From: a virus
Direction: 5' to 3' (one strand)
DNA length: 64,000 bases
Virus record (IMG/VR): IMGVR_UViG_3300033273_000513
Span: 23,836-87,835 of that record
The position numbers and the translations under genes are program-made. Under the pieces are notes generated by a model that made no database searches, had not been told where the DNA came from, and worked only from the letters and a program-made list of their open reading frames with translations. This document shows, one piece after another, positions 2,148 through 34,628 of this stretch (the stretch's first letter is position 1; every line of letters begins with the position of its first letter).

Positions 2148-5100
2148 ATGCCATACATTGGACAGCCACCCGTATCAGGTGACACTACGAAGAGTTTTAG
2201 ATTACTTGATAATCTAGCCTCTTTCACTTTAACATTCGATGCTACGAGTAGTAGTGTTGTTGACACAACAGCGAACACTCTGACGTTTGCAAATCATAGA
2301 TTCGTAACTGCACAGAGAGTTACTTATACTGATGGAGGTGGAACTGCAATCGGTGGATTGACCGATGGAACGGCATATTTCGTTATCAAGGTTGATCAGA
2401 ACACGATTCAACTCGCTTCGAGTGCATCGAACGCAAACAATAGTACAGCTATCAGTCTGTCTTCTGGTGCAGCAGGTGGATCGCACACACTGAATCTTGC
2501 ATTTGACGGCACAAACACTAAGTTCAAAGCCACCTACGGAAACGGAACCAAAGCAAAGATCAGTCGTGCTGGTCAACTTCTGATTTCTATCAATGGTGTT
2601 CTTCAACAAGCACAAGAATCTTCTACACCAACGTTAGGTTTTGGTCTGGATTCTGACTCTACGATTGTATTCAGTCAAGCTCCTGTATCGACTGATGTTC
2701 TGTTTGGTCAGATTCTTGCTGACACCATTACAAACTTTGACACACAAGATAACACTCTTGATGTCTTCACAGGTGACGGTAGCACCACAACATTCAATCT
2801 TTCCAAGAAACCTGCAAGTAATAACGATATTCTGGTCACTCTGGACGGTGTTGTTCAGTATCCAACCACAACTTCTACGTCTAATGCATACAGTGTCACT
2901 GAAAGTACACTGACATTTACTGCTGCACCTGCTGATGGTGTAGCTATTCAAGTTCGTCATATTGGTTTTGCTGGTGCAACATCGAGTGCTGTCACTGGAC
3001 TGTATGGTAGAACTGGTAATGTAACTCTGAGTAGTTCTGATGATGATATTACAGTCGGTAATGTCACCGCAGGTATCATCACCGCAACTTCTTATGGTTC
3101 TATCAGTGGTACGACTGCATCATTCAGTGGTAACGTATCTATTGGTGGCACATTAACTTACGAAGATGTAACTAATATTGATTCGGTAGGTCTGATTACG
3201 GCAAGAAATGGAATCAAGGTTGATGATTTAGGTGTTCAGGTAGGAACTGGTGCGACTGTAGATAGTGCTGCTGCCAATACTCTAACTTTCTTGACGAATG
3301 GTAGTGAAAGACTTCGTATTGACGGATCAGGCAACTTTGGAATTGCAGAAAGCAGCCCATCGACCCATTCAGCTGGAAGTGGGATACCAACTCTTGTCTT
3401 AAAAGGCAACAATGCAAGCTTTACAGATAGAAGTGGCGCTGTTGCTTTTGTCAGTCAAGACGACGGAAGTACCTCAAGAACGTGGATGTACCACGACACG
3501 GATTTTAACATTCAAAGCACTACAGCAACAAATATCAAGGTTCACACAAACAATACCGAGCGTCTACGCATTGACAGTTCAGGTCGATTGCTCCTGGGCA
3601 CGACGACTGAAGGTCACACTAATGCGGACAACTTTACGCTTTCAGATAGCGGCAGTTGCGGATTGTCGATAAGAAGTGGCACGAGTAATTTTGGTAGAAT
3701 TTATTTCTCAGATGGTACTAGCGGAGACGATGAGTATCGAGGAATTATTCAATACGACCACAGCAATAATCGAATGCAGTTTGCGGCTAATGCCTCAACT
3801 ACAATGACTATTGACAGCTCAGGCCGTATAGGAATGGGCAACGACTCTCCTGGAAGTTACAGTGCCGTTGCTGATGATCTAGTTGTTGGTAATCATAGTG
3901 GTGCTCACGGAATTACTATTGCCGCTGAAAATAACAATACAGCATATTTGAGATTTGCTGACGGAACTGCTAACTCCGGCCAACAAGCAAATGGACAAAT
4001 TGCATATAGTCATGCAGATCTCTCGATGAGATTTAATGTCGATGCATCAGAACGGATGCGTATCGACAGCTCGGGCAATCTTGGCATTGGCGAATCGTCT
4101 CCAGACACAACTCTGCATATTGATAGTGGAAGCACACCAACCACACTCAAAATTTCTTCAAACACTGAATCTTCTATTGATTTTGAAGATAAGGGGGGCA
4201 GCGCAAATCGATACAAGATTGGCACAAACATAAGCAGCAATGACGGTCAGTTTGAGTTAAAAGATATGACCGCAAATGCTGAGCGGCTGCGTATCGACAG
4301 CTCTGGGAATGTTGGACTCGGAAGAAATAGTGCCTCTAGTCGGTTACATATAGCAACATCAGTTGCAAACGCTTCTTCACCAGTTGGGATGCAGATTGGC
4401 AATGATGGAAGCGGATCAGGAACAGGAGCCAGTATTAGTCTTGGTGCTGGCAACGCAGCAGCAAGCACTGCCGGGAATATAGCCGGGTTTTACGATGGCA
4501 CAGGAACGGCACTATCTTTTAACACTTCTAGTAGCTACGGGGTTAGTGTGTATTCCGAGCGGATGCGCATCGACAGCTCTGGCCGGTTGTTGGTTGGTCA
4601 TACTTCTGCCCGCACGAACTTTATTACAACAACGCTTCAATCACAAATTGCAGTTGAAGGCGGTTATACGCCGTATATTTCAGCAACCAAAAGTACAAAC
4701 GATCCGTATGAACCATACTTTCTTTTAGCTAAAACAAGAGGTTCGGTTGGCGGTAACACTATTGTCCAAAACAATGACGGTTTGGGCACTATCATGTTCC
4801 ACGGAGCTGACGGTTCAACCCTACGACAAGGTGCATATATTGCAGCGTATGTAGACGGCACCCCTGGCGCTGACGACATGCCGGGACGCTTAGTGTTCGC
4901 CACTACTGCCGACGGTTCGGGCGCTGCGACCGAGCGGATGCGCATTCAGAATGATGGTTTATGCAGAGCTTATTCAAACGGCGATGGCTTTATTGCGGCA
5001 TCAAATCAATCAGCTGGTACAGCATTTGCGACACTCGTTGGGCGTCATAGCGCAACATCCACAACAACTGGTACCAACAGCTTTCTTGTTTATACCAATG

Positions 5101-5476: not shown

Positions 5477-5671
5477 ATGGCTAACTATCATATCAAGAAG
5501 TCATCTGTTCTCTTAGTAGGCACAGATGTATATTATGTTGGGGGTAATAGATGGTCTGACGATTTTGCAGACAGAAAAATCTTTACCAGTGAAACCACCG
5601 CACAAAACACCATCTCTAACACGGATGGAACAAACGGAGGATTCTCTGGCGCAAGTGTAGTTAGCGAATAA
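5477..5671 (+). CDS. Small late hypothetical protein
   Basis: 64-aa ORF with its own late promoter, filling the gap between structural genes. Confidence 0.75.
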   Translation: MANYHIKKSSVLLVGTDVYYVGGNRWSDDFADRKIFTSETTAQNTISNTDGTNGGFSGASVVSE

Positions 5672-5674
5672 ATA
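5668..5674 (+). promoter_or_regulatory. Late promoter ATAAATA
   Basis: Overlaps the previous stop. Leader aaaaaagtgtagcataATG matches that of gene 165. Confidence 0.75.
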
Positions 5675-5693
5675 ATCAAAAAAGTGTAGCATA

Positions 5694-11600: not shown

Positions 11601-12344
11601 GATGCAATCGTCGCAACCGCAAGTGGTTCAGTCGGACTGTACTTCGACGGTTCTGAGAAACTGACCACTGCAAATACTGGTGCGGTTGTCACTGGTATTC
11701 TGACAGCCACTACATTCAGTGGTAATCTGACAGGAACCGCAGTAACTGCAACGACTGCAATTGTTGGTTCCGCAGTAACAATCGGTGAGTCTGGAGTAAA
11801 TGTAACTGGTGTTGTCACTGCTACGAGTTTCGTTGGTGATGGTTCAGCACTGACTGGTATCTCTGGTGTATCAACCGCAGATGTTAGAACCAGCACACTG
11901 AATGTCGTCGGTGTTTCTACACTTGGTATTGCATCGATCTCTGCATCGGGTATCGTCACCACCACAGATTCCGTTGGTATTCTTACATATCACGGTGATG
12001 TTTCTAATGCTGCACATCAGAGATGGTATCTGGGTGCAAATGGATCTAGTGATTATACATTCGTTGGTAGTGGTATGACATTCACCAGACATGATCCAAC
12101 CTTGTTTGTTGCGAGAGGAAGTGTTGTTGAGTTCGTTAATAACATGGGCGCACATCCATTCCAGATTCAACTTGAGTATCAGAACACTGGTGGCACTGCA
12201 TACAATGATGGTGTTACAAACAATGGCGCGAGTGCTGGAACGGTCAGATTTGAAGTTCCACATGATGCACCAAACACTCTTTATTATCAGTGTACTTCAC
12301 ACTCTGGAATGGCTGGAACGATCACAGTTTACCCAACAGTTTGA
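5694..12344 (+). CDS. Very large virion structural/tail fibre protein with C-terminal cupredoxin-like domain
   Basis: 2216 aa; MPLSRLENFLKN start typical of cyanomyovirus fibres; repeated VTATSFVGDGS motifs; C-terminal HPFQI...YYQCTSHSGMAG. Confidence 0.8.
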   Translation: MPLSRLENFLKNIQGNVIYVDPNELDATDSIENQGNSQTRPFKTIQRALIEAARFSYVAGQRNDKFDQTTIILAAGTHVVDNRPGYIPYDSSNQAKYYTRFGQANQTLSPFGLGSNFDLTSPDNELYKLNSVRGGVIIPRGTSIVGKDLRKTKIRPKYVPDPENNAIETSAIFRLTGACYISQFTIFDGDPSGNVYKDYTSNLYTPNFSHHRLTCFEYVDGANAVTINDSFLNISSTSTDLDMYYQKVGDVYDVGTGRPIEPDFPSGSLDFQTRVEEYRIVGSKGQQVGISSIKAGTGAVSSTTITVDLDGSLTDLSIDTPVRISGVGTAGYNGIHVVSEVVSSTQFKYVVPSAPNNPLPTLTSADVNIEIDTINSASPYLFNLSKRSVFGMNGIHLDGSKVTGFKSGLLAQFTGNALQKDDKAFVRYNTTSGQYEDYTAVDNLHLDPEAIYRPEYKSSHVKVSNDSIMQAVSVFAIGHNNQYVAESGGELSLANCNANFGENALMSEGFKKTAFGPDNAAYITHIIPPKEITDDETNVDYLSIDVDKTIDVGTNTRLYFEGYTNQDAPPPHILDGFRVGSNFNDRLRVQLNINGNEGDFVSKIVMPTATGITTDTGAKSYVVGNAVGVSSISSNLLTLKSNHKLIDGESIRITADNGFLPDGLEENQIYYAIVSSLDANTIKVARTLNDALDGTALTINNTGGELSVVSRVSDKKSGDIGHPVQFDTTNKNWYINVSNITVDNEIYPTLVGVGTTALGPNTPKTYFTRKGNSRNLDDSIYRVRYVIPAGITTARPPIEGYVLQETSDTTGANDSEITTTSLTNIDDQRNFHFLSEASWSSNVATIMSEEPHHLTVGSVVNVNKITSSNNTTGVGNSGFNGRFAVTGITSDRGFQYALTSNPGTSTLSNQTRTVDDLPNFEKNEYSKSFYIYNVEEVKEHITGEQDGVYHLTCLHYDASPTVTPFTGFKFSQPVKDLYPQVDRDNPVSDPIAALSHAESKPIGKVVSSDVRDSITKDFANKFLLENGVSVGITSIVSDNGAGLAHTAYLTVEHQLNSIVSVGIASSGIGYGSGSATTLYGAKLIGVGIGSTSGGGALANITVDAVGGITGVTIINGGGAYGIGNSLEVVGVTTAAGHIVGMVTVTNVYNGIGEVIQIAGIRSDTNSKLNDTFRVTATPDARSVSFASTDVIDFGRSLGGGSNNIVVGSAMSNATMSFIGPSIGVTAISYDVTTGIATVGTGNTAHGFLTGSKIKLIGAGQTTYKGTFTVQENVGLSTFTVNLGVSTVTAPTLSGEVFALPGGYSSNDGAITEDDEKVGSRMNSMYAGITTTMSAGITSTSSSISITNATASGLNIGDYIMVGNEMMRIKNTSINSVFRGVFGTESINHPSGTVIKKVRVVPVELRRGSLIRAANQTFEYVGFGQGNYSVSLPEKQTKVLSTEDRKLGQTQRRNGGQNYYTGLNDVGEYFVGNKVIKGTTGEEEVFDAPIPTVTGETAVDTTYIDSLKVSGGTDGDALSKFDGPTLFTNKVTSTSEEGIEANSIQLQGDAKSARKITVGISTPVVGGSAGDITFSAKPSQGGYAGWVYTSDNVWRRFGLVSNDVNSNNYSVDKLGIGTTSANTVLDVLGDVNVSGTLTATTFGNINTGIITATSFVGDGSQITGVIGIGSGFVIQNNGTTLGMAATVNFNSNLTAEYSTGIATISSPDTNYWSNTNAGINTTASVGIGTTNPTTALTVSGIVSATTFAGNITGTGATFTTSTITTATVGSAVTITESGINAAAGVVTATSFVGDLTGNADTATTATTAGYASTAGIATVAQGLTGTPAIAVGILTSTEARIGSAVTISESGISIHSGIVTATSFVGDGSALTGIGNTADVRTSTLTVIGVSTIGAGATFTIGAGAGNGIEFLNGSSSKIRLSTDDGATSPRLFLGAVSSNTGAKLQVNASTGALNIDADNNINIRTATNEDAIVATASGSVGLYFDGSEKLTTANTGAVVTGILTATTFSGNLTGTAVTATTAIVGSAVTIGESGVNVTGVVTATSFVGDGSALTGISGVSTADVRTSTLNVVGVSTLGIASISASGIVTTTDSVGILTYHGDVSNAAHQRWYLGANGSSDYTFVGSGMTFTRHDPTLFVARGSVVEFVNNMGAHPFQIQLEYQNTGGTAYNDGVTNNGASAGTVRFEVPHDAPNTLYYQCTSHSGMAGTITVYPTV

Positions 12345-12348
12345 TCTG

Positions 12349-12386
12349 ATAAATAATAAAAAATAAAGGGTGGAGAGTGAAACCCG
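12349..12386 (+). promoter_or_regulatory. Late promoter plus conserved leader hairpin GGGT-GGAGAGTGAA-ACCC
   Basis: ATAAATA 12349-12355; hairpin 12368-12385 directly before ATG 12387. Confidence 0.7.
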
Positions 12387-13625
12387 ATGGCAGTAAACAA
12401 GAACTTTGTTGTCAAAAACGGATTAGAGGTTGACACTAATACGCTTTTTGTTGATCCCGCGAATAACAGAGTTGCCATCGGGACGACAATCCCGACTGCA
12501 GCCTTAGATGTAAGAGGTAAAATCCTATCCGACAGTCAGGTTGAAAGTTGGGTAGGTAAATTCGTTGGTATCGTCACAGCAGGTGCTGTGGGTGTTACCA
12601 CGATGACTGCGACTGATGCAACAGTCACAGGATTCTCAACACTTGGACGTGCAAATGCTTCGTCTCTGAATGTCACCACTGGATTTTCTACAGTCCAATC
12701 ATTAACTGCAACTGACATCACTGTCGGTGCAGGTGTCACCATTAGTGGTGATATTAATGTCTCTGCGGCTGCAACGGTCGGTGGTGCATTAACAGTTACT
12801 GGTGCATCTAAATTTGCACTTGATGGAAGATTTGAAAAAGCATTAGAAATTGGTCAAGATCTAAATGTCGGTGCTGCTGCAACGATTACAGGCATCTCAA
12901 CATTTACAGGTGCCGCTAAGTTTGCAGAGTTTGTAAGATTTGAAAAGGACATCGCAGTCGGTTCTGCTGCAACAGTCGGTGTTCTGACCGTCACCAATAA
13001 CACTTACATTGGTGGTAATTTGAATGTTGGTGGTGACATCAACTTGGATGAATTGGTATCCCGTAACCTTGAAGTCACTGGTATTGCTACCATTGGTTTC
13101 CTAACTGCAACCAATTCGTTCACATCTGGTGTTGGTACGGTTGGATTTCTCACTGCAACAGACATCTTCGTATCTGGTGTAACGACAGTTACGCATTTGA
13201 ATTCCACTAACTCCACACTGAGTGGTATTACCACGATCAGTAATCTGAACGTGGATAATATGGAGTTAAGTGGCATTGGTACTGTCACTCAACTGAAAGC
13301 AACCACCGCAACAATCACTGGTATTATTACAACCAATAGTGGTGTTGAGGTTGGAACTGGTATTACTTTATCACCTGAAGGTAATATCTTCTCGACAGGT
13401 ATCACCACAACTTCGACCAAATTAAATGTTGGTCTTGGCGGCACTATGATGACTGTGGTTGCGGCTGGAAGTTCCGTGACTGCTGGTATCAACTCCACAA
13501 GTCCACAATATGTGTTAGATGTTCATGGCGACATAAATAGTTCTAGCGCAGTTAATGTCGCTGGCGTCAGCGTCCTGGTGACTGCATCCAACGATGCCAC
13601 CGCTCTTGCAATTGCTCTCGGATAA
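12387..13625 (+). CDS. Virion structural / fibre-like protein
   Basis: MAVNKNFVVKNGLEV start; T/G/V-rich beta repeats; ends ATALAIALG; late promoter. Confidence 0.75.
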   Translation: MAVNKNFVVKNGLEVDTNTLFVDPANNRVAIGTTIPTAALDVRGKILSDSQVESWVGKFVGIVTAGAVGVTTMTATDATVTGFSTLGRANASSLNVTTGFSTVQSLTATDITVGAGVTISGDINVSAAATVGGALTVTGASKFALDGRFEKALEIGQDLNVGAAATITGISTFTGAAKFAEFVRFEKDIAVGSAATVGVLTVTNNTYIGGNLNVGGDINLDELVSRNLEVTGIATIGFLTATNSFTSGVGTVGFLTATDIFVSGVTTVTHLNSTNSTLSGITTISNLNVDNMELSGIGTVTQLKATTATITGIITTNSGVEVGTGITLSPEGNIFSTGITTTSTKLNVGLGGTMMTVVAAGSSVTAGINSTSPQYVLDVHGDINSSSAVNVAGVSVLVTASNDATALAIALG

Positions 13626-13631
13626 TAAACA

Positions 13632-13964
13632 ATGGCAAACACTTTTAAACTAAAGACTAAAGCAAACATCGGAGTTACCACGGTTGGCATCTACACCGTT
13701 CCTTCTTCGACTACCACTGTGGTTATTGGTATTACTCTCGCGAACACATCTGGTTCGGGAGTAAATGTTGGTGTTGGTGTCACGAGACTCTCTGCAAGTG
13801 GAGAAAATATTGATCTTCTAAAAAATGCCCCTCTTCCACAAGGTTCTGCTTTGGAATTCATGCAGGGTAACAAAGTTGTTCTGCAAGCAGGAGACTGTGT
13901 AAGAGTCAACAGTGACACTAATACTAGTGTTGACGCAGCTCTCACAATCATGGAGATTACCTGA
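13632..13964 (+). CDS. Small virion structural protein
   Basis: 110-aa ORF (MANTFK...LTIMEIT), coupled to the next gene by a TGATG overlap. Confidence 0.75.
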   Translation: MANTFKLKTKANIGVTTVGIYTVPSSTTTVVIGITLANTSGSGVNVGVGVTRLSASGENIDLLKNAPLPQGSALEFMQGNKVVLQAGDCVRVNSDTNTSVDAALTIMEIT

Positions 13965-16129
13965 TGGCATTTACTAAAATTACGAACGCTGGTTTTGGTC
14001 TGACGACTGGAACCTTAGTTGGTGTAGCAGCGTCTTTTTCTAGTACTGTCTCGGTTGGTGGTACTCTGACCTATGAAGATGTAACGAACGTAGATTCGGT
14101 AGGTCTGATTACTGCGAGAAATGGTATTGAAGTTACAGATAAAGGTGTTCAGGTAGGAACTGGTGCGACTGTAGATAGTGCTGGCGATAATATTCTGACG
14201 TTCTTAACGAATGGTAGTGAGAGAGTTCGTGTAACTTCTGATGGTAGAGTTGGAATAAACACAGACATGGGTGGAGCTCCTGCATCACTCTACCCATTTT
14301 CCGTTTACAGATCAACTGGAACTGGTTATCTTTATACAGAAACTGCTCAATCTGGTGCGAGTGCTGGACTTAGAGCAAAAGCAGGAACAGCAGACTTTAC
14401 AATATTCACAACTCAAGGTACAGGTCAATTAGCAATATATGACAACACAAATACCGCAGAAAGACTTCGTATAGATTCAAGTGGTCGCTTGATGCTGGGC
14501 ACGACGACTGAGGGATATAGCAGCGGAGATGATTTAACGATTGCAACGTCAGGTCACACTGGAATAACGCTTCGTTCTGGAACAACAAGTGAAGGTGCTG
14601 TTTATTTCTCTGATGCGACAAGTGGTGGCGGTGAATATATAGGATCCTTGGTTTATAGCCACAACACAAATAATATGATCTTTACGGCCAATGGTGCCGA
14701 AAGGATGCGTATTGCCAGTGATGGTGATGTTGGTGTTGGTCTTGCAAGTCCTAACAGCAGGTTACACGTAAAAGGTGGGAGTGACTCAACTGATAATCTT
14801 CTTTTGACTTTACAGTCAAATGGAGTTGCAAATGATGGTTCTTTATCCACAGGACTTAGATTAATTAACTCTACTTCTGATTCTTCAATTCATGGTGGAG
14901 AAATTAGAGCAATTCGTAGTAGTGCCTCAGCAGCCGCTCTTACTTTTTCTACTTATAACGGAACATCAATTGCAGAAGCAGTTCGTATAGATTCAAGTGG
15001 TAATTTTGGCGTCGGAACAGCGAGCCCTGGGTACAAGATTGAGGTAACTCAAGGAAGTGGTAATAGTGTTGCCAGATTTACGGGTGCAAATTCTGCCAAC
15101 CTTGTTTTCAGAAACGCAACCAGCAATGTATTTGAATTAAATGCAGGCGGCAGCAATGACGAGCTTTCCTTTGGCACGGCTGGCAATAACGAACGGCTGC
15201 GCATTTCAGACACTGGAAAAGTTCAGGTTAGAGGCACTCGTGGTGGATCTTTGCAACCAAGTGACAACGATACGCTTGAGTTATATACATCAGCTAGTAA
15301 CGGCGCTGCCAATACAGGTTCTGGTCTGACTTTCTTTAACAACGACGGCAATGGTTATGAAATAGGCGGCACCATTCAAGTTGCCAAAGAGAATGGCTCA
15401 ATTAATAATACAGCTGGATATATGCGTTTCTCGACTAGAGCGAACGCCTCAGATCCAGCTGAGCGGATGCGGATTACGAGCGGTGGCGAAGTTTTAATAG
15501 CTCGGACAAGCGCAAGTATCAGCAATGTCGGTCATTATTTTCTTCCTGGAGGCGCTTTTAACCACACAAGAAGTGGCGATACTGTCGGGGTAATCAACAG
15601 ACTTGCAAGTGACGGCACATTGATCGGTTTTAGACAAGCCGATAGTCTTGAAGGCAGTATCAGTGTTTCTGGTTCTACTGTTTCTTACAACGGCGGTCAC
15701 TTAGCTCGTTGGTCGCAACTTCCCAGCGGTGCAGCACGCACCGAAATTTTGCGTGGCTCTGTACTAAGTAACCTTGACGAGATGTGTGAGTGGGGTGATG
15801 AGAATAATGAACAGTTGAACCGTATGAAGGTAAGTGATGTTGAAGGTGACATCAATGTATCAGGAGTATTCCAAGCTTGGGATGATGATGACGATACTTA
15901 CACTAATGACTTTTATTGCGCGATGACGGGTGACTTTGTGATCCGTATTGCTCAGGGAACAACAGTTGCACGAGGTGATTTACTGATGTCTGCTGGTGAT
16001 GGTACTGCTAAACCACAAGATGATGATATTGTAAGATCTAAAACTGTTGCTAAGGTGACTAGCACCACGGTTTCTGCTACTTACGTTGATGGAAGTTACT
16101 GTGTTCCTTGTGTACTGATGGCATGTTGA
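13964..16129 (+). CDS. Modular tail fibre/adhesin
   Basis: Shares TLTYEDVTNVDSVGLITAR and ERxRIDSSG modules with genes 165 and 2148; distinct acidic C-terminal domain. Confidence 0.8.
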   Translation: MAFTKITNAGFGLTTGTLVGVAASFSSTVSVGGTLTYEDVTNVDSVGLITARNGIEVTDKGVQVGTGATVDSAGDNILTFLTNGSERVRVTSDGRVGINTDMGGAPASLYPFSVYRSTGTGYLYTETAQSGASAGLRAKAGTADFTIFTTQGTGQLAIYDNTNTAERLRIDSSGRLMLGTTTEGYSSGDDLTIATSGHTGITLRSGTTSEGAVYFSDATSGGGEYIGSLVYSHNTNNMIFTANGAERMRIASDGDVGVGLASPNSRLHVKGGSDSTDNLLLTLQSNGVANDGSLSTGLRLINSTSDSSIHGGEIRAIRSSASAAALTFSTYNGTSIAEAVRIDSSGNFGVGTASPGYKIEVTQGSGNSVARFTGANSANLVFRNATSNVFELNAGGSNDELSFGTAGNNERLRISDTGKVQVRGTRGGSLQPSDNDTLELYTSASNGAANTGSGLTFFNNDGNGYEIGGTIQVAKENGSINNTAGYMRFSTRANASDPAERMRITSGGEVLIARTSASISNVGHYFLPGGAFNHTRSGDTVGVINRLASDGTLIGFRQADSLEGSISVSGSTVSYNGGHLARWSQLPSGAARTEILRGSVLSNLDEMCEWGDENNEQLNRMKVSDVEGDINVSGVFQAWDDDDDTYTNDFYCAMTGDFVIRIAQGTTVARGDLLMSAGDGTAKPQDDDIVRSKTVAKVTSTTVSATYVDGSYCVPCVLMAC

Positions 16130-16165
16130 TAAATAACTAGAAACATCGGGGGATAGTGAACCCAA
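16129..16165 (+). promoter_or_regulatory. Late promoter plus leader hairpin GGG-GGATAGTGAA-CCC
   Basis: ATAAATA 16129-16135; hairpin 16148-16163. Confidence 0.7.
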
Positions 16166-16843
16166 ATGCCATACATCGGTCGCGACCTAACGCAAGGTAA
16201 TTATATCAAGATTGATGACTTACAGTCATCTTTTAATGGTACGACTAAGACATTCAATCTGACCACTGGTGGTAATGCATTTACACCAGGATCAGCGAAT
16301 GCTTTGTTAGTATCTTTGGGTGGTGTTATTCAAGAACCAATCGAATCGTATACGGTCACAAATGACCAGATTACGTTCTCAAATCCACCCACAGCTTCTA
16401 CTTCTATCTTTATCATTGCACTCGGTGCTGCAGTCAGTATCGGTACACCTGCTGAAGGAACAGTTACTGCAACCAAGTTAGCAGATCCTTTTGGCACATA
16501 TTCTGGTGTCGGTGGATTCACGATGACAGGTATCATCAGTGCTACCGAGATTCGTGGTGATGGTAGATTCCTGACTGGTGTATCTGCTGGTAAGTTTGTC
16601 ACAGAAACCGCAGGCATCGTCACAAATACTTCTGTAGGTATCAATACATCTACAGTTGATGACAACGACCTCACAGGGATTGGCAACTCCTTCCAGGGTC
16701 TTTATATCTCTAATGGCATGGTTATCCATGACAATAGATTGAATGGTGCTCATTACATTGGCACTGCTTTCAATGGTCTTATGGCTGGGCCAGTCACTAT
16801 CGGTGGAACATTGACCATCGATGGCAACTATGTTGTGGTCTAA
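16166..16843 (+). CDS. Virion structural protein (fibre-associated)
   Basis: MPYIG start; FNGTTKTFNL / LLVSLGGVIQEP domain also present in gene 2148. Confidence 0.75.
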   Translation: MPYIGRDLTQGNYIKIDDLQSSFNGTTKTFNLTTGGNAFTPGSANALLVSLGGVIQEPIESYTVTNDQITFSNPPTASTSIFIIALGAAVSIGTPAEGTVTATKLADPFGTYSGVGGFTMTGIISATEIRGDGRFLTGVSAGKFVTETAGIVTNTSVGINTSTVDDNDLTGIGNSFQGLYISNGMVIHDNRLNGAHYIGTAFNGLMAGPVTIGGTLTIDGNYVVV

Positions 16844-16875
16844 ATATTTAAAACTAGGGGGAGAGTGAACCCGAG
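16840..16875 (+). promoter_or_regulatory. Late promoter variant (CTAAATA) plus leader hairpin GGG-GGAGAGTGAA-CCC
   Basis: CTAAATA 16840-16846; hairpin 16857-16872. Confidence 0.65.
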
Positions 16876-18051
16876 ATGACTATCATCAATCAGAAAAGTA
16901 TATCTGGTATTACAAGTATCACGTTTGCGTCAGCAGGCGATGACTTGTTAACGTTCCACAGTAATAATGGAACGGAAAGATTCCGTATTGATAATAGTGG
17001 CAACACTAAAATTACTGCTGGTATTGTTACAACACTGACTGTCACTGGCACTACCACATTAAATGGTAATTTAGACCTTCAAGATAATGATAAGATCTTG
17101 ATTGGTACAGGTGATGACTTAGAGATTTATCATGATGGTAGTCATTCATACATTGATGATTCTGGCACTGGAGATCTAAGAATTCGTTCAAATAACGTCA
17201 GATTTGATAAGTATACTGGTGAAACAATAGCACAGTTTATTGGAGATGGACGTGTTGAATTATATTATGACAACTCGAAGAAACTCGAAACCAAATCAGA
17301 CGGCGTAGACATCACTGGCGAGTTGCAATGCGACAGCTTGGATGTTGATGGTGCGGGAAATATTTCTGGAATTCTCAACCTAGGCAACAACCTGGATATG
17401 CCTGACAGTACCAAAGTTATCCTTGGCAATGGCGACGACCTGCAAATTTATCACGACGGCACGCACAGTTACATTAAAGACGGTGGAACAGGAAACTTAA
17501 AAGTTCTATCCTCAAGTATGGTAGTCAAAAATGCAGCTGATAGTGAAATCATGTTGCAGGCTACTCAAAATGGTTCTGTAGATCTTTATTACGATAACTC
17601 CAAGAAATTTGAAACATTAACCAATGGAGTCAGAGCACAAGGTGGTATCTTATTTGGGTCAGACACAGCTAATGCAAACGCTCTTGATGATTATGAAGAG
17701 GGCACTTGGACGCCTACTGTAACTTCTTCTGGTAGCGTTACAGGCGAAGACGCAAAATATACAAAGATTGGCAATTTAGTGCATGTTTACGGAAAACTAA
17801 GCAGTTTTACTAATAGATCATCTAGCAATACCATCGTGATAAGTGGCTTGCCTTATACAGCTTCAACTAATCAATCTGGTGGATCTATGTTCGCTCGATA
17901 CTCAGACAGAACTGCATACACAGTTTATGTTTACAGCAACAAGATAGAGTTTTATTCGATCGGCTCTGGTAATTTTACATCTTTGCAGCATTTACATCTT
18001 AATAATGATAACGCTGCAATATATTTCCAAGCCACTTATAACGTGGCTTAA
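16876..18051 (+). CDS. Tail fibre-like protein
   Basis: Internally duplicated DDL(E/Q)IYHDGxHSYI...LYYDNSKK unit; LDDYEEGTWTP motif common in phage fibre tips. Confidence 0.75.
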   Translation: MTIINQKSISGITSITFASAGDDLLTFHSNNGTERFRIDNSGNTKITAGIVTTLTVTGTTTLNGNLDLQDNDKILIGTGDDLEIYHDGSHSYIDDSGTGDLRIRSNNVRFDKYTGETIAQFIGDGRVELYYDNSKKLETKSDGVDITGELQCDSLDVDGAGNISGILNLGNNLDMPDSTKVILGNGDDLQIYHDGTHSYIKDGGTGNLKVLSSSMVVKNAADSEIMLQATQNGSVDLYYDNSKKFETLTNGVRAQGGILFGSDTANANALDDYEEGTWTPTVTSSGSVTGEDAKYTKIGNLVHVYGKLSSFTNRSSSNTIVISGLPYTASTNQSGGSMFARYSDRTAYTVYVYSNKIEFYSIGSGNFTSLQHLHLNNDNAAIYFQATYNVA

Positions 18052-18104
18052 GCCCGCAACATAAATAATACGCCTAAACCTGTTTAATTCGGAGGATTAT
18101 CCTA

Positions 18105-18407
18105 ATGGCACTTACTGAAAGAAACGAAAACGACAAGATTGAAGTCGTTGGTCAATACAAAGCAGTCCAAGTTCGTAGAGCAACTGTCATCGAAAAAGAT
18201 GGTGTAGAACTCACCCGTTCATTCCATCGTCATGTTCTTCATCCTGGCACACTGGATGAGAATGATGCTCTGGTAGACACTGACCTATCTGGAGAGGATG
18301 CTGATGTTCAAGCAATCTGCAATGCTGCATGGACTGATGCAGTTAAAGAATCATGGCGTGTAAAACTTGTGAATGATATGGTGGATGCAGGTATCGCTAC
18401 TGCCTGA
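18105..18407 (+). CDS. Small acidic protein, probable tail fibre assembly/accessory protein
   Basis: ATAAATA at 18061 and GGAGG RBS; follows a fibre gene. Function inferred from position. Confidence 0.7.
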   Translation: MALTERNENDKIEVVGQYKAVQVRRATVIEKDGVELTRSFHRHVLHPGTLDENDALVDTDLSGEDADVQAICNAAWTDAVKESWRVKLVNDMVDAGIATA

Positions 18408-18442
18408 TAAATAACTAAAACAAAGGGGGATAGTGAACCCAA
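18407..18442 (+). promoter_or_regulatory. Late promoter plus leader hairpin GGG-GGATAGTGAA-CCC
   Basis: ATAAATA 18407-18413; hairpin 18425-18440. Confidence 0.7.
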
Positions 18443-19909
18443 ATGGCTTCAGAAATTAGAGTCAATAAAATAAACAGTCGCACTGGTGTGGGGACAATTA
18501 CACTGTCTCCCACTGGTGTAGATTTTACTGGTATTGCAACAGTTGCAACGTTAAAAGCAACTACAGGTATCGTTACAACACTGACAGCAACTACAGGTAT
18601 TGTCACGACATTAACAGTTGACACAACTAGAACCACCACTGGTATTGTTACGACACTGACAGCTGATACTTCTAGAATTACCACTGGTATTGTTACGACA
18701 CTGACAGCGGACACAGCTAAAGTTGGTGCTGCAGTTACCATCTCTGAATCAGGAATGGAGGTAACTGGTGTTACCACAGTCACAAGTTCTATTAACATTG
18801 GTTCAGCAACTACAATCAGTTCTAGTAGTCTTGAAGTAAATGGAGTTCAATATCCGACTGCTGGTGCGTTGAGTAATCGCAACCTGATTATCAATGGTGC
18901 GATGCAAGTGGCGCAGCGTGGAACGAGTCAGACTGGAGTTACTTCTACGACCTATGCCGGTCCAGATCGTTTTCAGCAAATACTTAGTTCGGCTGGAACT
19001 TGGACTATTAGCCAAAGTACAGAAGCGCCCGAAGGTTTTTCGACTTCGTTAAAACTAGACTGCACTACAGCCAAAGCCAGTTTGTCGGCCAGTAATTTGT
19101 ACCTTTTAGGACAAAAAATTGAAGGCTTTAATGTTCAACATTTAGATTACAATACTTCCAACGCAAAAACAACGACCCTTAGTTTTTGGGTCCGATCTAA
19201 CAAAACGGGGACGTATGTTCTCGAAGTCACCTCTAGCACCTCTACTCGCAAAATATCGCAAACTTATACTATTAACTCAGCCAATACCTGGGAAAAAAAG
19301 ACGCTTCAGATACCTGGAGATACGGGTGGCTCCCTTCCAAATACAAACGCTGCTGAGTTTAATGTGTATTGGTGGGTGGCCGCTGGCACTAATTACACAA
19401 GTGGAACGTTAAACACCAACTGGGGAACACCAGCAGACACTAATAGGGCAGTCGGTCAAACAGTAAATCTTGCCGACAGCACTAGCAATGATTTTTATCT
19501 AACTGGCGTCCAACTAGAAGTTGGCGAAAAGGCGACACCGTTTGAGCACAGAAATTATGGCGATGAGCTTGCTAGGTGTCAAAGATATTACTATCGAGTC
19601 AACTCCCAAACTTCCTACAATCCATACGGCTTTGGCTCGAATAGTACCACGAGTGCTGGTCAAGCGATTGTTCAACATCCAGTCGAAATGAGAGTGGTTC
19701 CAAGCTCTTTGGATTATTCTAATCTTGCTTCTACAGTTCTTGGTGTTAGTGACGTTTTAATTACGTCAGCTGCGCTTCTTGCCGTTGGAAACGGTAAACT
19801 TATGTCAACTATAAGTACTTCCTCAAGTGGTGCTTTTACAACAGGGTTTTTTACTTTAACGGCCAAACAAACAACTTCTTCATACATTGGCTTTAGTGCG
19901 GAGCTTTGA
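18443..19909 (+). CDS. Tail fibre protein with carbohydrate-binding-like domain
   Basis: TTGIVTTLT repeats; NRNLIINGAMQVAQRG and TGVQLEVG...TPFEHR...ELARCQRYY motifs common in phage fibres. Confidence 0.75.
   Translation: MASEIRVNKINSRTGVGTITLSPTGVDFTGIATVATLKATTGIVTTLTATTGIVTTLTVDTTRTTTGIVTTLTADTSRITTGIVTTLTADTAKVGAAVTISESGMEVTGVTTVTSSINIGSATTISSSSLEVNGVQYPTAGALSNRNLIINGAMQVAQRGTSQTGVTSTTYAGPDRFQQILSSAGTWTISQSTEAPEGFSTSLKLDCTTAKASLSASNLYLLGQKIEGFNVQHLDYNTSNAKTTTLSFWVRSNKTGTYVLEVTSSTSTRKISQTYTINSANTWEKKTLQIPGDTGGSLPNTNAAEFNVYWWVAAGTNYTSGTLNTNWGTPADTNRAVGQTVNLADSTSNDFYLTGVQLEVGEKATPFEHRNYGDELARCQRYYYRVNSQTSYNPYGFGSNSTTSAGQAIVQHPVEMRVVPSSLDYSNLASTVLGVSDVLITSAALLAVGNGKLMSTISTSSSGAFTTGFFTLTAKQTTSSYIGFSAEL
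18557..18720 (+). repeat. In-frame tandem repeats (30/45 nt) encoding TTGIVTTLT
   Basis: Four copies; accactggtattgttacgacactgacagc is identical at 18635 and 18680. Confidence 0.85.
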
Positions 19910-19911
19910 TC

Positions 19912-20079
19912 ATGTACCGAATTTTCACGACAATTTCCAACGGTGTTGAGCTGACCAGCATTATTAGGGACAACGGCAACAATCAGTACACTTCTTTCCC
20001 TGCGGACCCCGACAACCGCCACTACCAAGAATACCTTGAGTGGCTTGCTGAAGGTAACACACCTGATCCTGCTGAATAA
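19912..20079 (+). CDS. Small fibre-associated protein (not in ORF track)
   Basis: 55 aa MYRIFTT...FPADPDNRHYQEYLEWLAEGNTPDPAE; this motif typically follows fibre genes. Confidence 0.8.
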   Translation: MYRIFTTISNGVELTSIIRDNGNNQYTSFPADPDNRHYQEYLEWLAEGNTPDPAE

Positions 20080-34303: not shown

Positions 34304-34482
34304 TGTCTGAGAAACGTTTCAAGTTAGTGTATGAAGGGCGGGATCTCTCGACTCTTCTGAGTGAGGAAGGAAAGTTTGAAGCGATGCAAAAACTTTCGAT
34401 TTGGTTTGATGAGGGTCGTGAAGGTGCGATCGATCCTGATAAAGTAAAAGTCATTGATGTATTGGAGGAGAGTGAGTCCTGA
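34303..34482 (+). CDS. Hypothetical protein
   Basis: TGATG coupling on both sides. Confidence 0.65.
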   Translation: MSEKRFKLVYEGRDLSTLLSEEGKFEAMQKLSIWFDEGREGAIDPDKVKVIDVLEESES

Positions 34483-34628
34483 TGGCAAAGTCTAAAGTTG
34501 GTCTGAGTGGTGGAGTGTTTGTACAGTCTGAACCGAAAAAAACTCGACAAGGACAAGGAAAACACACATTGTATAGCGCAACCTCTCGCAATAAAGCGAA
34601 GAAACCCTATCGCGGTCAAGGCAAGTAA
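34482..34628 (+). CDS. Small highly basic protein (not in ORF track)
   Basis: 48 aa MAKSKVG...PKKTRQGQGKHT...KKPYRGQGK; GGAGGAG RBS. Confidence 0.75.
   Translation: MAKSKVGLSGGVFVQSEPKKTRQGQGKHTLYSATSRNKAKKPYRGQGK

Follow-up and report, generated by a model that had tools for sequence, protein, structure and literature searches.

The DNA analyzed here, called the window, is a 64,000-nucleotide (nt) stretch of an 87,835-base IMG/VR virus record (IMGVR_UViG_3300033273_000513) estimated to be 41% complete, and the nearest named relatives of the window are T4-like cyanophages of the Kyanoviridae. Within it, four genes for fibre-, baseplate- or virion-structural-type proteins are each preceded by a predicted late promoter and, between promoter and start codon, by a short hairpin in which three or four base pairs close a 10-nt loop. 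The four cassettes are laid out as follows, in window coordinates, with hairpin scores from the covariance model R1 described below.

12348..12355, + strand, predicted late promoter of cassette 1, GATAAATA, of the T4 type NATAAATA
12368..12385, + strand, hairpin 1: GGGT (12368-12371), loop GGAGAGTGAA (12372-12381), ACCC (12382-12385); 35.6 bits
12387..13625, + strand, gene 1: 412 amino acids (aa), MAVNKNFVVKNGLEV... (MAVNKNF...), baseplate/tail-fibre-like
16128..16135, + strand, predicted late promoter of cassette 2, GATAAATA
16148..16163, + strand, hairpin 2: GGG (16148-16150), loop GGATAGTGAA (16151-16160), CCC (16161-16163); 34.8 bits
16166..16843, + strand, gene 2: 225 aa, MPYIGRDLTQGNY... 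(MPYIGR...), tail-fibre/virion structural N-terminal module
16840..16846, + strand, predicted late promoter of cassette 3, CTAAATA
16857..16872, + strand, hairpin 3: GGG (16857-16859), loop GGAGAGTGAA (16860-16869), CCC (16870-16872); 32.4 bits
16876..18051, + strand, gene 3: 391 aa, MTIINQKSISGITSI... (MTIINQKS...), tail-fibre-like
18406..18413, + strand, predicted late promoter of cassette 4, GATAAATA
18425..18440, + strand, hairpin 4: GGG (18425-18427), loop GGATAGTGAA (18428-18437), CCC (18438-18440); 35.0 bits
18443..19909, + strand, gene 4: 488 aa, MASEIRVNKINSRTG... (MASEIRV...), tail fibre protein; phrog_4492 (tail fiber), E = 4e-57

All four copies lie on the + strand where an earlier reading of this DNA (the original prediction) had placed them, with sequences exactly as it described. 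From copy 1 to copy 4, the 5' arm begins 12, 12, 10, and 11 nt after the end of TAAATA, and 1, 2, 3, and 2 nt lie between the 3' arm and the ATG (at 12387, 16166, 16876, and 18443, respectively), in agreement with the claimed spacings of 10-12 nt to the promoter and 1-3 nt to the start; the extra T-A pair claimed for copy 1 is likewise present (GGGT/ACCC). A cyanomyovirus late promoter of the NATAAATA type is described in PMC2984593.

The 87,835-base record holds these four hairpins only, all on the + strand. A search with the 16-nt consensus, allowing up to 3 mismatches, returned 5 matches against 0.34 expected, and the 18-nt form returned 5 against 0.42; in both cases, none of 100 shuffles reached 5. 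The exact 10-nt loop occurs four times on the forward strand of the record and never on the reverse strand, and a reversed control pattern gave no match. With R1, the four window copies scored 32.4-35.6 bits and the next best site 12.1 bits. This fifth site (34459-34484, GGA/GGAGAGTGAG/TCC) was rejected, as it lies within the coding sequence of a small open reading frame (ORF; ...VLEESES*) and has no late promoter. It overlaps a TGATG junction with a 48-aa ORF, and the look-alike is probably just a coupling Shine-Dalgarno sequence.

In PHROGs, all four hairpin genes match tail-fibre, baseplate, and virion-structural families, whereas Pfam returned no family for any of the seven proteins scanned. 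Gene 1, which matches PHROG baseplate wedge/tail families, heads an operon with the genes at 13632-13964 and 13964-16129, and its orthologues in phages Bellamy and P-TIM68 are labelled 'baseplate wedge initiator'. The hairpin genes stand out because the remaining promoter-proximal late leaders of the window are A-rich and lack GGAG.

Comparative evidence for the hairpin and its distribution

Single-sequence folding predicts the hairpin at each of the four copies, with ordinary stability (z = -0.91, -0.05, -0.67, and +0.38), which speaks against a structured element. Because single copies fold no better than shuffles, the case for structure rests on comparative data and not on energy. Three samples of relatives were drawn. 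Sample (a) consisted of at least 120 sites in viral contigs scanned for TAAATA-N(8-20)-GGAKAGTGAA, with the stem left unconstrained. Sample (b) comprised protein relatives of the 412-aa product of gene 1 (best 80 of 159). Sample (c), the least biased, was collected by the coding pattern NKNFVxKNG only, and its at least 119 loci gave 105 distinct 70-nt upstream regions. Model R1 was built from alignment A1 (79 rows, chosen for at least three pairs); the rows L020 and L091 (related loci are designated L plus a number) were left out, having 3-pair A/T stems and no fibre-type gene downstream. Alignment A2 contains 74 distinct 26-mers from sample (c) for which pairing was not a selection criterion, and the unbiased pair counts were taken from it because A1 had been chosen for pairing.

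In sample (a), at least three contiguous pairs flank the loop at 48 of 120 sites among the matches listed, compared with about 11 expected with shuffled partners and with 11, 6, and 4 when the 3' flank was slid by 1, 2, and 3 nt. The stems in this sample include GGG/CCC, GGGT/ACCC, GAGG/CCTC, GGAG/CTCC, AAGG/CCTT, GTGG/CCAC, AACGG/CCGTT, and CTAAAG/CTTTGG, and CGGT/ACCG is a further covarying stem among relatives. In sample (b), the hairpin is visible in 78 of the 79 upstream sequences inspected, the copy of L139 lying elsewhere in its locus. Sample (c) has the loop GGANAGTGAA together with at least three pairs in 95 of 105 distinct upstream regions among the matches listed. The others divide into a loop with a mismatch or register shift (2/105), a loop altered by one letter on an intact stem (GGACAGGGAA, or AGTGGAA, which has gained a G; 3/105), a hairpin with a different loop (3/105), and no clear hairpin (2/105).

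The pair counts in A2 give the same picture. Of the 74 sequences, 73, 74, and 73 have the respective inner three pairs, with GC, AU, UA, CG, and GU among the pair types, and 58 have the fourth, for which six pair types occur. The covariation score of A2 is 0.470, compared with 0.137 for shuffles (0/500 reach the observed score) and at most 0.119 for slid partners. RNAalifold independently returned the identical four-pair helix, and the pairing picture in A1 agrees with that in A2. Moreover, all 101 matches of R1 in 1.0 Mb of related loci fall on the gene strand. Overall, covarying stems across many phages around a near-invariant loop bear out the claim of a real structure, and we regard the RNA hairpin as very probably established.

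We define the family by the loop GGANAGUGAA, at least three covarying pairs, location on the sense strand, and a position between a TAAATA promoter and a start codon; the four window copies, the copies of Bellamy and P-TIM68, and the 95 orthologue upstream regions listed all show these features. The element measures about 26 nt, with 3-4 (up to 6) pairs closing the 10-nt loop GGA-N-AGUGA-A. In both A1 and A2, eight of the ten loop positions (G9 G10 A11 and A13 G14 U15 G16 A17) are invariant; A18 is A in at least 90% of sequences and otherwise U, while N12 can be any base, mainly G, next U, and rarely A or C. The loop stays invariant while the identity of the downstream protein falls to about 30%. 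As for its fold, a bulged-G/loop-E motif was considered and does not fit the sequence; a tandem G.A arrangement (G9.A18, G10.A17, A11.G16, and an N-A-G-U tetraloop) would be compatible with the A18U variant.

The leaders carry an A-rich single strand 5' of the stem. Among the matches listed in sample (c), the start codon is ATG in 97, TTG in 5, and GTG in 3 of 105, and the TTG and GTG starts fall within the 3' arm (CCTTGG, CCGTG). Among the 95 leaders listed, start codons show a bimodal distribution relative to the stem, 76 lying at -5 to +3 nt and 19 at 6-11 nt, and the distance from promoter to stem is spread over 5-19 nt in 93 of the 95, two being scored 0. The hairpin thus keeps a tighter distance to the start codon than to the promoter.

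The loop is kept nearly letter for letter in more than 100 related phage contigs. R1 matched 79 of 80 related loci (best 80 of 159), and the exception aligns only residues 197-270. Most of these loci carry a single copy before the MAVNKNF gene, with one match in 67 of the 79, counted over loci of 2-17 kb and not over complete genomes. Two to four strong copies were found, among the best 80 of 159 loci, only in the window, L125-L129, L131-L135, L137, and L155; L163 has a weak second match of 17.9 bits. In the multi-copy loci that were tabulated (L125, L126, L131, L133-L135, L137, and L155), the copies head the same four gene families. The scope first given to the element, four genes of a tail-fibre island, was thus too narrow: its primary home, widely conserved, is the MAVNKNF... 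gene of many Kyanoviridae, and the three extra copies are specific to a sub-lineage.

Among cultured phages, Bellamy has one copy (38.3 bits) and P-TIM68 one copy (28.2 bits, stem GAGG/CCTC followed by a separate GGAG), each before the 'baseplate wedge initiator' gene, and S-SRM01 has a weaker copy (18.3 bits) with the loop GGAAAGTGAA and a GTG start in the arm. R1 found nothing beyond chance level in Syn9, S-PM2, P-SSM2, and P-SSM4 and no match in T4; a match in S-PM2 (14.8 bits, E = 0.43) and a second one in P-TIM68 (15.5 bits, E = 0.27) were set aside as chance level. A host origin was likewise rejected, as 61 picocyanobacterial genomes gave no convincing match, the best (23.2 bits, E = 0.025 per genome) being at chance level. 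In metatranscriptome contigs from four runs of one study, relatives at 90-99% identity are present over parts of the region, and hairpin 1 is bridged by contigs, a form from which strand and 5' ends are not readable. Contig ends near 16110-16130 in these data coincide with the point where homology to relatives begins.

Some relatives depart from the family pattern. The MAVNKNF-type genes of L243, L259, and L332 have a hairpin in the same place with the loop ...GGCG(C/T)TCTCC..., of which CTCTCC is the reverse complement of the usual GGAGAG and resembles an anti-Shine-Dalgarno sequence; the segment between the stem arms could have been inverted, or these leaders could be regulated by another logic. 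The leaders of L250 and L305, which have no hairpin, carry GGGAGATATGGAACTGTGGCA and a GTG start, and GGGAGATATGGAACTGTGGCA may be a remnant of the loop or an alternative version of it.

Other late leaders of the window are built differently. Hairpin genes 3 and 4 are separated by a 100-aa gene (18105-18407) whose upstream region (18058-18104) contains an ATAAATA and, in place of the hairpin, a canonical GGAGG Shine-Dalgarno sequence; its product matches phrog_6228 (function unknown), and its DNA has relatives in the cyanopodoviruses P-RSP2 and P-GSP1. Three giant upstream fibre genes (starts at 165, 2148, and 5694) share another conserved late leader without hairpin or GGAG (~135-164, 2118-2147, and 5664-5693), which reads ATAAATAA(C/T)(T/C)AAAAAA(G/C)TGTAG(C/T)A(T/A)(A/G) and is directly followed by ATG. 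This pattern has 0 occurrences in the 428 loci examined. The gene at 2148 begins MPYIG, as hairpin gene 2 does.

A proposed loop-presented Shine-Dalgarno sequence and the competing explanations

The 16S gene of Synechococcus WH7803 ends ...GGATCACCTCCTAA, and GGAG-A-GUGA of the loop pairs with the 16S tail UCACCUCC (5'-UCAC-CUCC-3') through eight pairs with one bulged A; without A13, the loop is a perfect GGAGGUGA. The duplex between the GGAG loop and the 16S tail has a predicted energy of -11.4 kcal/mol, in the top 0.2% of window 10-mers, and that of the A18U variant reaches -12.1 kcal/mol. GGAU loops, which pair as GGA + GUGA only, give -6.8 kcal/mol (top 5% of window 10-mers). The four hairpins themselves are predicted at -4.1 to -5.2 kcal/mol. 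The loop thus offers at least four contiguous 16S pairs at a workable distance, with GGAG 8-13 nt from the start, at the long end, and this complementarity supports the earlier suggestion of a Shine-Dalgarno-like sequence in the loop.

The base at N12 goes together with the position of the start codon. Among the matches listed, N12 is G with an adjacent start (at most 3 nt) in 72 of 75 leaders, over several stem types, and U with a start 6-11 nt off in 16 of 18, raw counts that carry no correction for shared ancestry. In the distant class with N12 = U, GGAG, GAGG, or AGGA is present in the spacer in 8 of 16 among the matches listed. Distant hairpins, then, tend to be accompanied by an ordinary Shine-Dalgarno sequence, and their loops lack the fourth Shine-Dalgarno base, as is expected if the abutting loop serves as the Shine-Dalgarno sequence. 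The hairpin had been proposed as either a translational operator or an element presenting the ribosome-binding site (RBS), through which an RNA-binding protein, with RegA as the named candidate, would co-regulate the stoichiometry of a fibre subset; this pattern of loop type and start distance favours the RBS-presenting half.

From these sequence comparisons, the hairpin is probably an undescribed signal controlling the translation of these genes. In the model that we favour, the loop would display a bulged, extended Shine-Dalgarno sequence, 5'-GGAG-(A)-GUGA-3', to the 16S tail 5'-UCACCUCC-3', and the short stem would hold it single-stranded with the start codon at the stem foot, 0-3 nt past the stem or, for UUG and GUG, within the 3' arm. 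Recruitment of the 30S subunit would proceed via the loop, with the stem, weak at -4 to -5 kcal/mol, opening or being accommodated at initiation. The outcome would be a defined, tuned translation rate for a few promoter-proximal fibre and baseplate genes. Use of the loop by the ribosome is what we infer here, and we put the odds of this model as a whole at about even.

Several points weigh against the model, in addition to the uncorrected ancestry of the N12 counts. N12, the predicted partner of a 16S C, is freely variable, and A13, the would-be bulge, is invariant. The loop also remains invariant in leaders that have a separate canonical Shine-Dalgarno sequence nearer the ATG (e.g., P-TIM68), so the invariance must have some cause besides Shine-Dalgarno function. 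In the common class, GGAG lies 10-13 nt from the AUG, a long distance for a Shine-Dalgarno sequence, and an 8-base-pair duplex within a 10-nt loop would be sterically strained unless the stem opens. The invariance of A13, and of the whole loop beside a separate Shine-Dalgarno sequence, implies a putative second reader of the hairpin. Variable N12, invariant A13, the second Shine-Dalgarno sequence, the long spacing, and the uncorrected ancestry together keep an operator model alive, and the hairpin is possibly also an operator.

In its translational form, such a model has the stem closed over the Shine-Dalgarno sequence and start codon by an RNA-binding protein that recognizes the hairpin sequence and is encoded by the phage, or is possibly a virion or assembly protein. 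Fibre and baseplate synthesis would thereby be repressed or coupled, and the Shine-Dalgarno resemblance would be secondary; we consider this unlikely, though deserving of serious attention. A hairpin over the RBS and start with a sequence-specific loop is indeed what the leaders have. The conservation of eight of ten loop positions down to about 30% protein identity is in line with such a protein, as is its extension to A13, which Shine-Dalgarno pairing leaves unexplained, and to loops upstream of a separate Shine-Dalgarno sequence. In the leaders whose start codon lies inside the 3' arm (CCTTGG, CCGTG), a stabilized stem would block initiation. Furthermore, the same element precedes four genes of one structural module in the lineage of the window, and T4 offers precedents for hairpin operators (PMC3014915).

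However, the search for candidate readers, in which RegA, RegB, and S21 were examined, yielded no protein. A gene for RegA is carried by the motif-bearing phages P-TIM68 and Bellamy, by S-SRM01 with no more than its weak match, and equally by Syn9, which lacks the motif; the presence of RegA therefore does not follow that of the motif, and speaks neither for nor against RegA as the reader. RegB (PF10715) was absent from all 5 records searched (this record, 41% complete, P-TIM68, Bellamy, S-SRM01, and Syn9), with a T4 control at E = 1e-69, and S21 was not found in the five phage records searched. In addition, near-total invariance over several genera (Bellamyvirus, Haifavirus, and many uncultured lineages) would fit a ribosome-like universal partner better than a co-evolving phage protein. 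The broader version, in which baseplate and fibre translation is gated or coupled by a dedicated reader (a late protein of the phage, or S1 or another host factor that recognizes the unpaired GGA and the purine run, as at RegB/S1 sites), seems to us unlikely as well.

Another possibility is that the cassette of about 42 nt (late promoter, A-rich leader, hairpin, and start) is kept as a homology patch for swapping or homogenizing fibre modules. It would then be a late-gene analogue of the PeSL cassettes, which consist of promoter plus stem-loop and are shown to recombine (PMC2839356, PMC4122927). Such a role, quite improbable in our view, could coexist with a translational one. Variants are shared within genomes: all four copies of L137 (1874-8990) have GGGT/ACCC, two copies of L133 (14106 and 15559) share the rare GGAAAGTGAA, and the GGAT loop is found in genes 2 and 4 of both the window and L125 (L125 copies at 5043 and 7503), with the gene-4 leader of L125 being identical to the gene-2 leader of the window at 42 of 42 positions. 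Variants common within a genome and differing between genomes indicate, as far as sequence can, concerted evolution of the leader cassettes, and the pattern looks like conversion or recombination between them. Moreover, homology to L125, L131, L133, and L137 is restored from 16125-16129 on, where cassette 2 begins, and L126 matches there over the 43-nt cassette only.

A homology patch leaves unexplained, however, the compensatory stem changes, the invariant loop, the strand specificity, and the fixed distance to the start codon. The hairpin is also single-copy in 67 of the 79 loci with matches, and intragenomic exchange is impossible in genomes where it is single-copy; fibre genes with variable C-termini, furthermore, give block boundaries at gene starts anyway. 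Recombination would accordingly be a side-property or a co-function of the element. Separately, over the C-terminal two-thirds (14244-16125) of the 721-aa gene at 13964-16129, hardly any DNA similarity to L125, a 90%-identical relative, is left, save a lone 110-nt patch of 71% identity at 14482-14589, with flanking blocks 89-90% identical. Judged from this alignment, 14244-16125 is a replaced fibre module, bounded downstream by cassette 2.

T4-type late transcription usually starts a few nt past the promoter, and a start of this kind would place the hairpin within about 0-13 nt of the predicted 5' end, since it begins 10-12 nt past TAAATA in the window and 5-19 nt past it in nearly all orthologue leaders listed. 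Together with the A-rich single strand 5' of the hairpin, this would suit a role in mRNA stability or processing, in which the 5'-proximal hairpin protects the late transcript from 5'-end-dependent decay (RNase E or J) or serves as a mark for the processing of read-through transcripts. Protection would require no particular loop sequence, whereas here no part is better conserved than the loop, and the distance to the start codon is far tighter than that to the promoter. Besides, the stems have just 3-4 base pairs worth -4 to -5 kcal/mol, and most other late leaders of the window do without a hairpin, so that we rate this explanation as improbable too.

That there is no structure at all, the four copies being paralogous promoter/RBS sequence duplicated along with the genes and GGG...CCC being incidental, would agree with the shuffle-like stability of single folds and with the single informative difference (the T-A pair) among the window copies, but it is contradicted by the covariation counts, with many different complementary stems around the same loop in relatives, and is hardly credible.

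To our knowledge, how marine cyanophages control translation has hardly been explored, and Shine-Dalgarno sequences are used sparingly by their hosts. The hairpin is a compact, abundant, and sharply defined RNA element at the starts of tail-fibre and baseplate genes, which determine host range, and it is present in cultured, tractable phages, namely Bellamy (on WH8109) and P-TIM68 (on MIT9515). It offers a handle on how late structural genes are translated and balanced, on whether picocyanobacterial ribosomes can be recruited by a bulged Shine-Dalgarno sequence displayed in a loop, and on whether conserved leader cassettes help to shuffle fibre genes. The element is also a candidate for a new Rfam family and an annotation marker for the true start codons of these genes, UUG and GUG included. 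If an operator with a dedicated reader were true, it would represent a protein-RNA feedback circuit on late structural genes of double-stranded DNA phages, across many Kyanoviridae, copied from gene to gene by cassette conversion.

Comparison with known systems

A cmscan of 12000-20000 against Rfam 15 (E <= 10) gave four weak snoRNA/miRNA matches, none at a hairpin, in keeping with the original prediction, which could match the motif to no named RNA family. No description of the hairpin was found in the literature searched, a search that did not extend to figures, supplements, and non-open papers, and the loop sequence occurred there, among the matches listed, in unrelated papers, none on phage. 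The hairpin would thus be an RBS-associated leader hairpin without a described precedent in Rfam or in the literature searched.

The coat-protein operators of the RNA phages MS2, Qbeta, and PP7 are hairpin translational operators. The gp43 operator of T4 is another, as described in PMC3014915. These share with our element a short stem and a sequence-specific loop at the RBS or start, with the loop conserved and the stem covarying. In our case, by contrast, the genes are late structural genes of a double-stranded DNA phage, the 10-nt loop is purine-rich and complementary to 16S, and no binding protein is indicated. In the T4 genes e, soc, and 49, the late promoter is nested within a long, RBS-occluding hairpin, so that late transcripts cannot fold it. 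Both arrangements bring a T4-type late promoter together with a hairpin where a late gene begins; here, however, the whole hairpin lies downstream of the promoter, in the predicted late transcript, and the AUG is not sequestered in the common class.

The target of T4 RegB/S1 is GGAGRAYARAA, located in translation-initiation regions with a GGA that must be unpaired, according to PMC1702504 and PMC3014915. On that description, the invariant 5' GGA, the fourth base G/U, the purine-rich run, and the pyrimidine at position 7 are similar, and GGAKAGUGAA(A) fits 9 of 11 positions in copy 1. The loop departs from it at positions 6 and 8, both of which are G where A is strongly preferred in RegB sites, and RegB of T4 spares late mRNAs. 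We take the resemblance as a lead towards S1 rather than as putative membership.

PeSLs, as described in PMC2839356 and PMC4122927, repeat a promoter, a G(n)-loop-C(n) stem-loop, a Shine-Dalgarno sequence, and a start before variable genes, and they recombine; our cassettes bear possible signs of recombination or homogenization between copies. Their promoters are strong, early, and of the sigma70 type, and their stem-loops are effective terminators of upstream transcription (PMC2839356). In our cassettes, by comparison, the promoter is of the late TAAATA type (GATAAATA or CTAAATA), and the stem-loop lies downstream of it, inside the leader, with no U-run, 3-4 pairs, and an invariant loop. With so few pairs, no U-run, and a position downstream of the promoter, the hairpin is unlikely to act as a terminator of upstream transcription.

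The split RBS of T4 genes 38 and 25 is described in PMC3014915. There, the Shine-Dalgarno sequence lies 5' of the hairpin, which shortens a 22-27-nt spacer. In our leaders, the sequence 5' of the stem is A-rich with nothing resembling a Shine-Dalgarno sequence; the Shine-Dalgarno-like sequence is in the invariant loop of a 3-4-base-pair stem, and the two elements share no sequence similarity. What they have in common is a small hairpin that aids, or in our case would aid, the initiation of a T4-type late structural gene and that is kept within a phage sub-group only.

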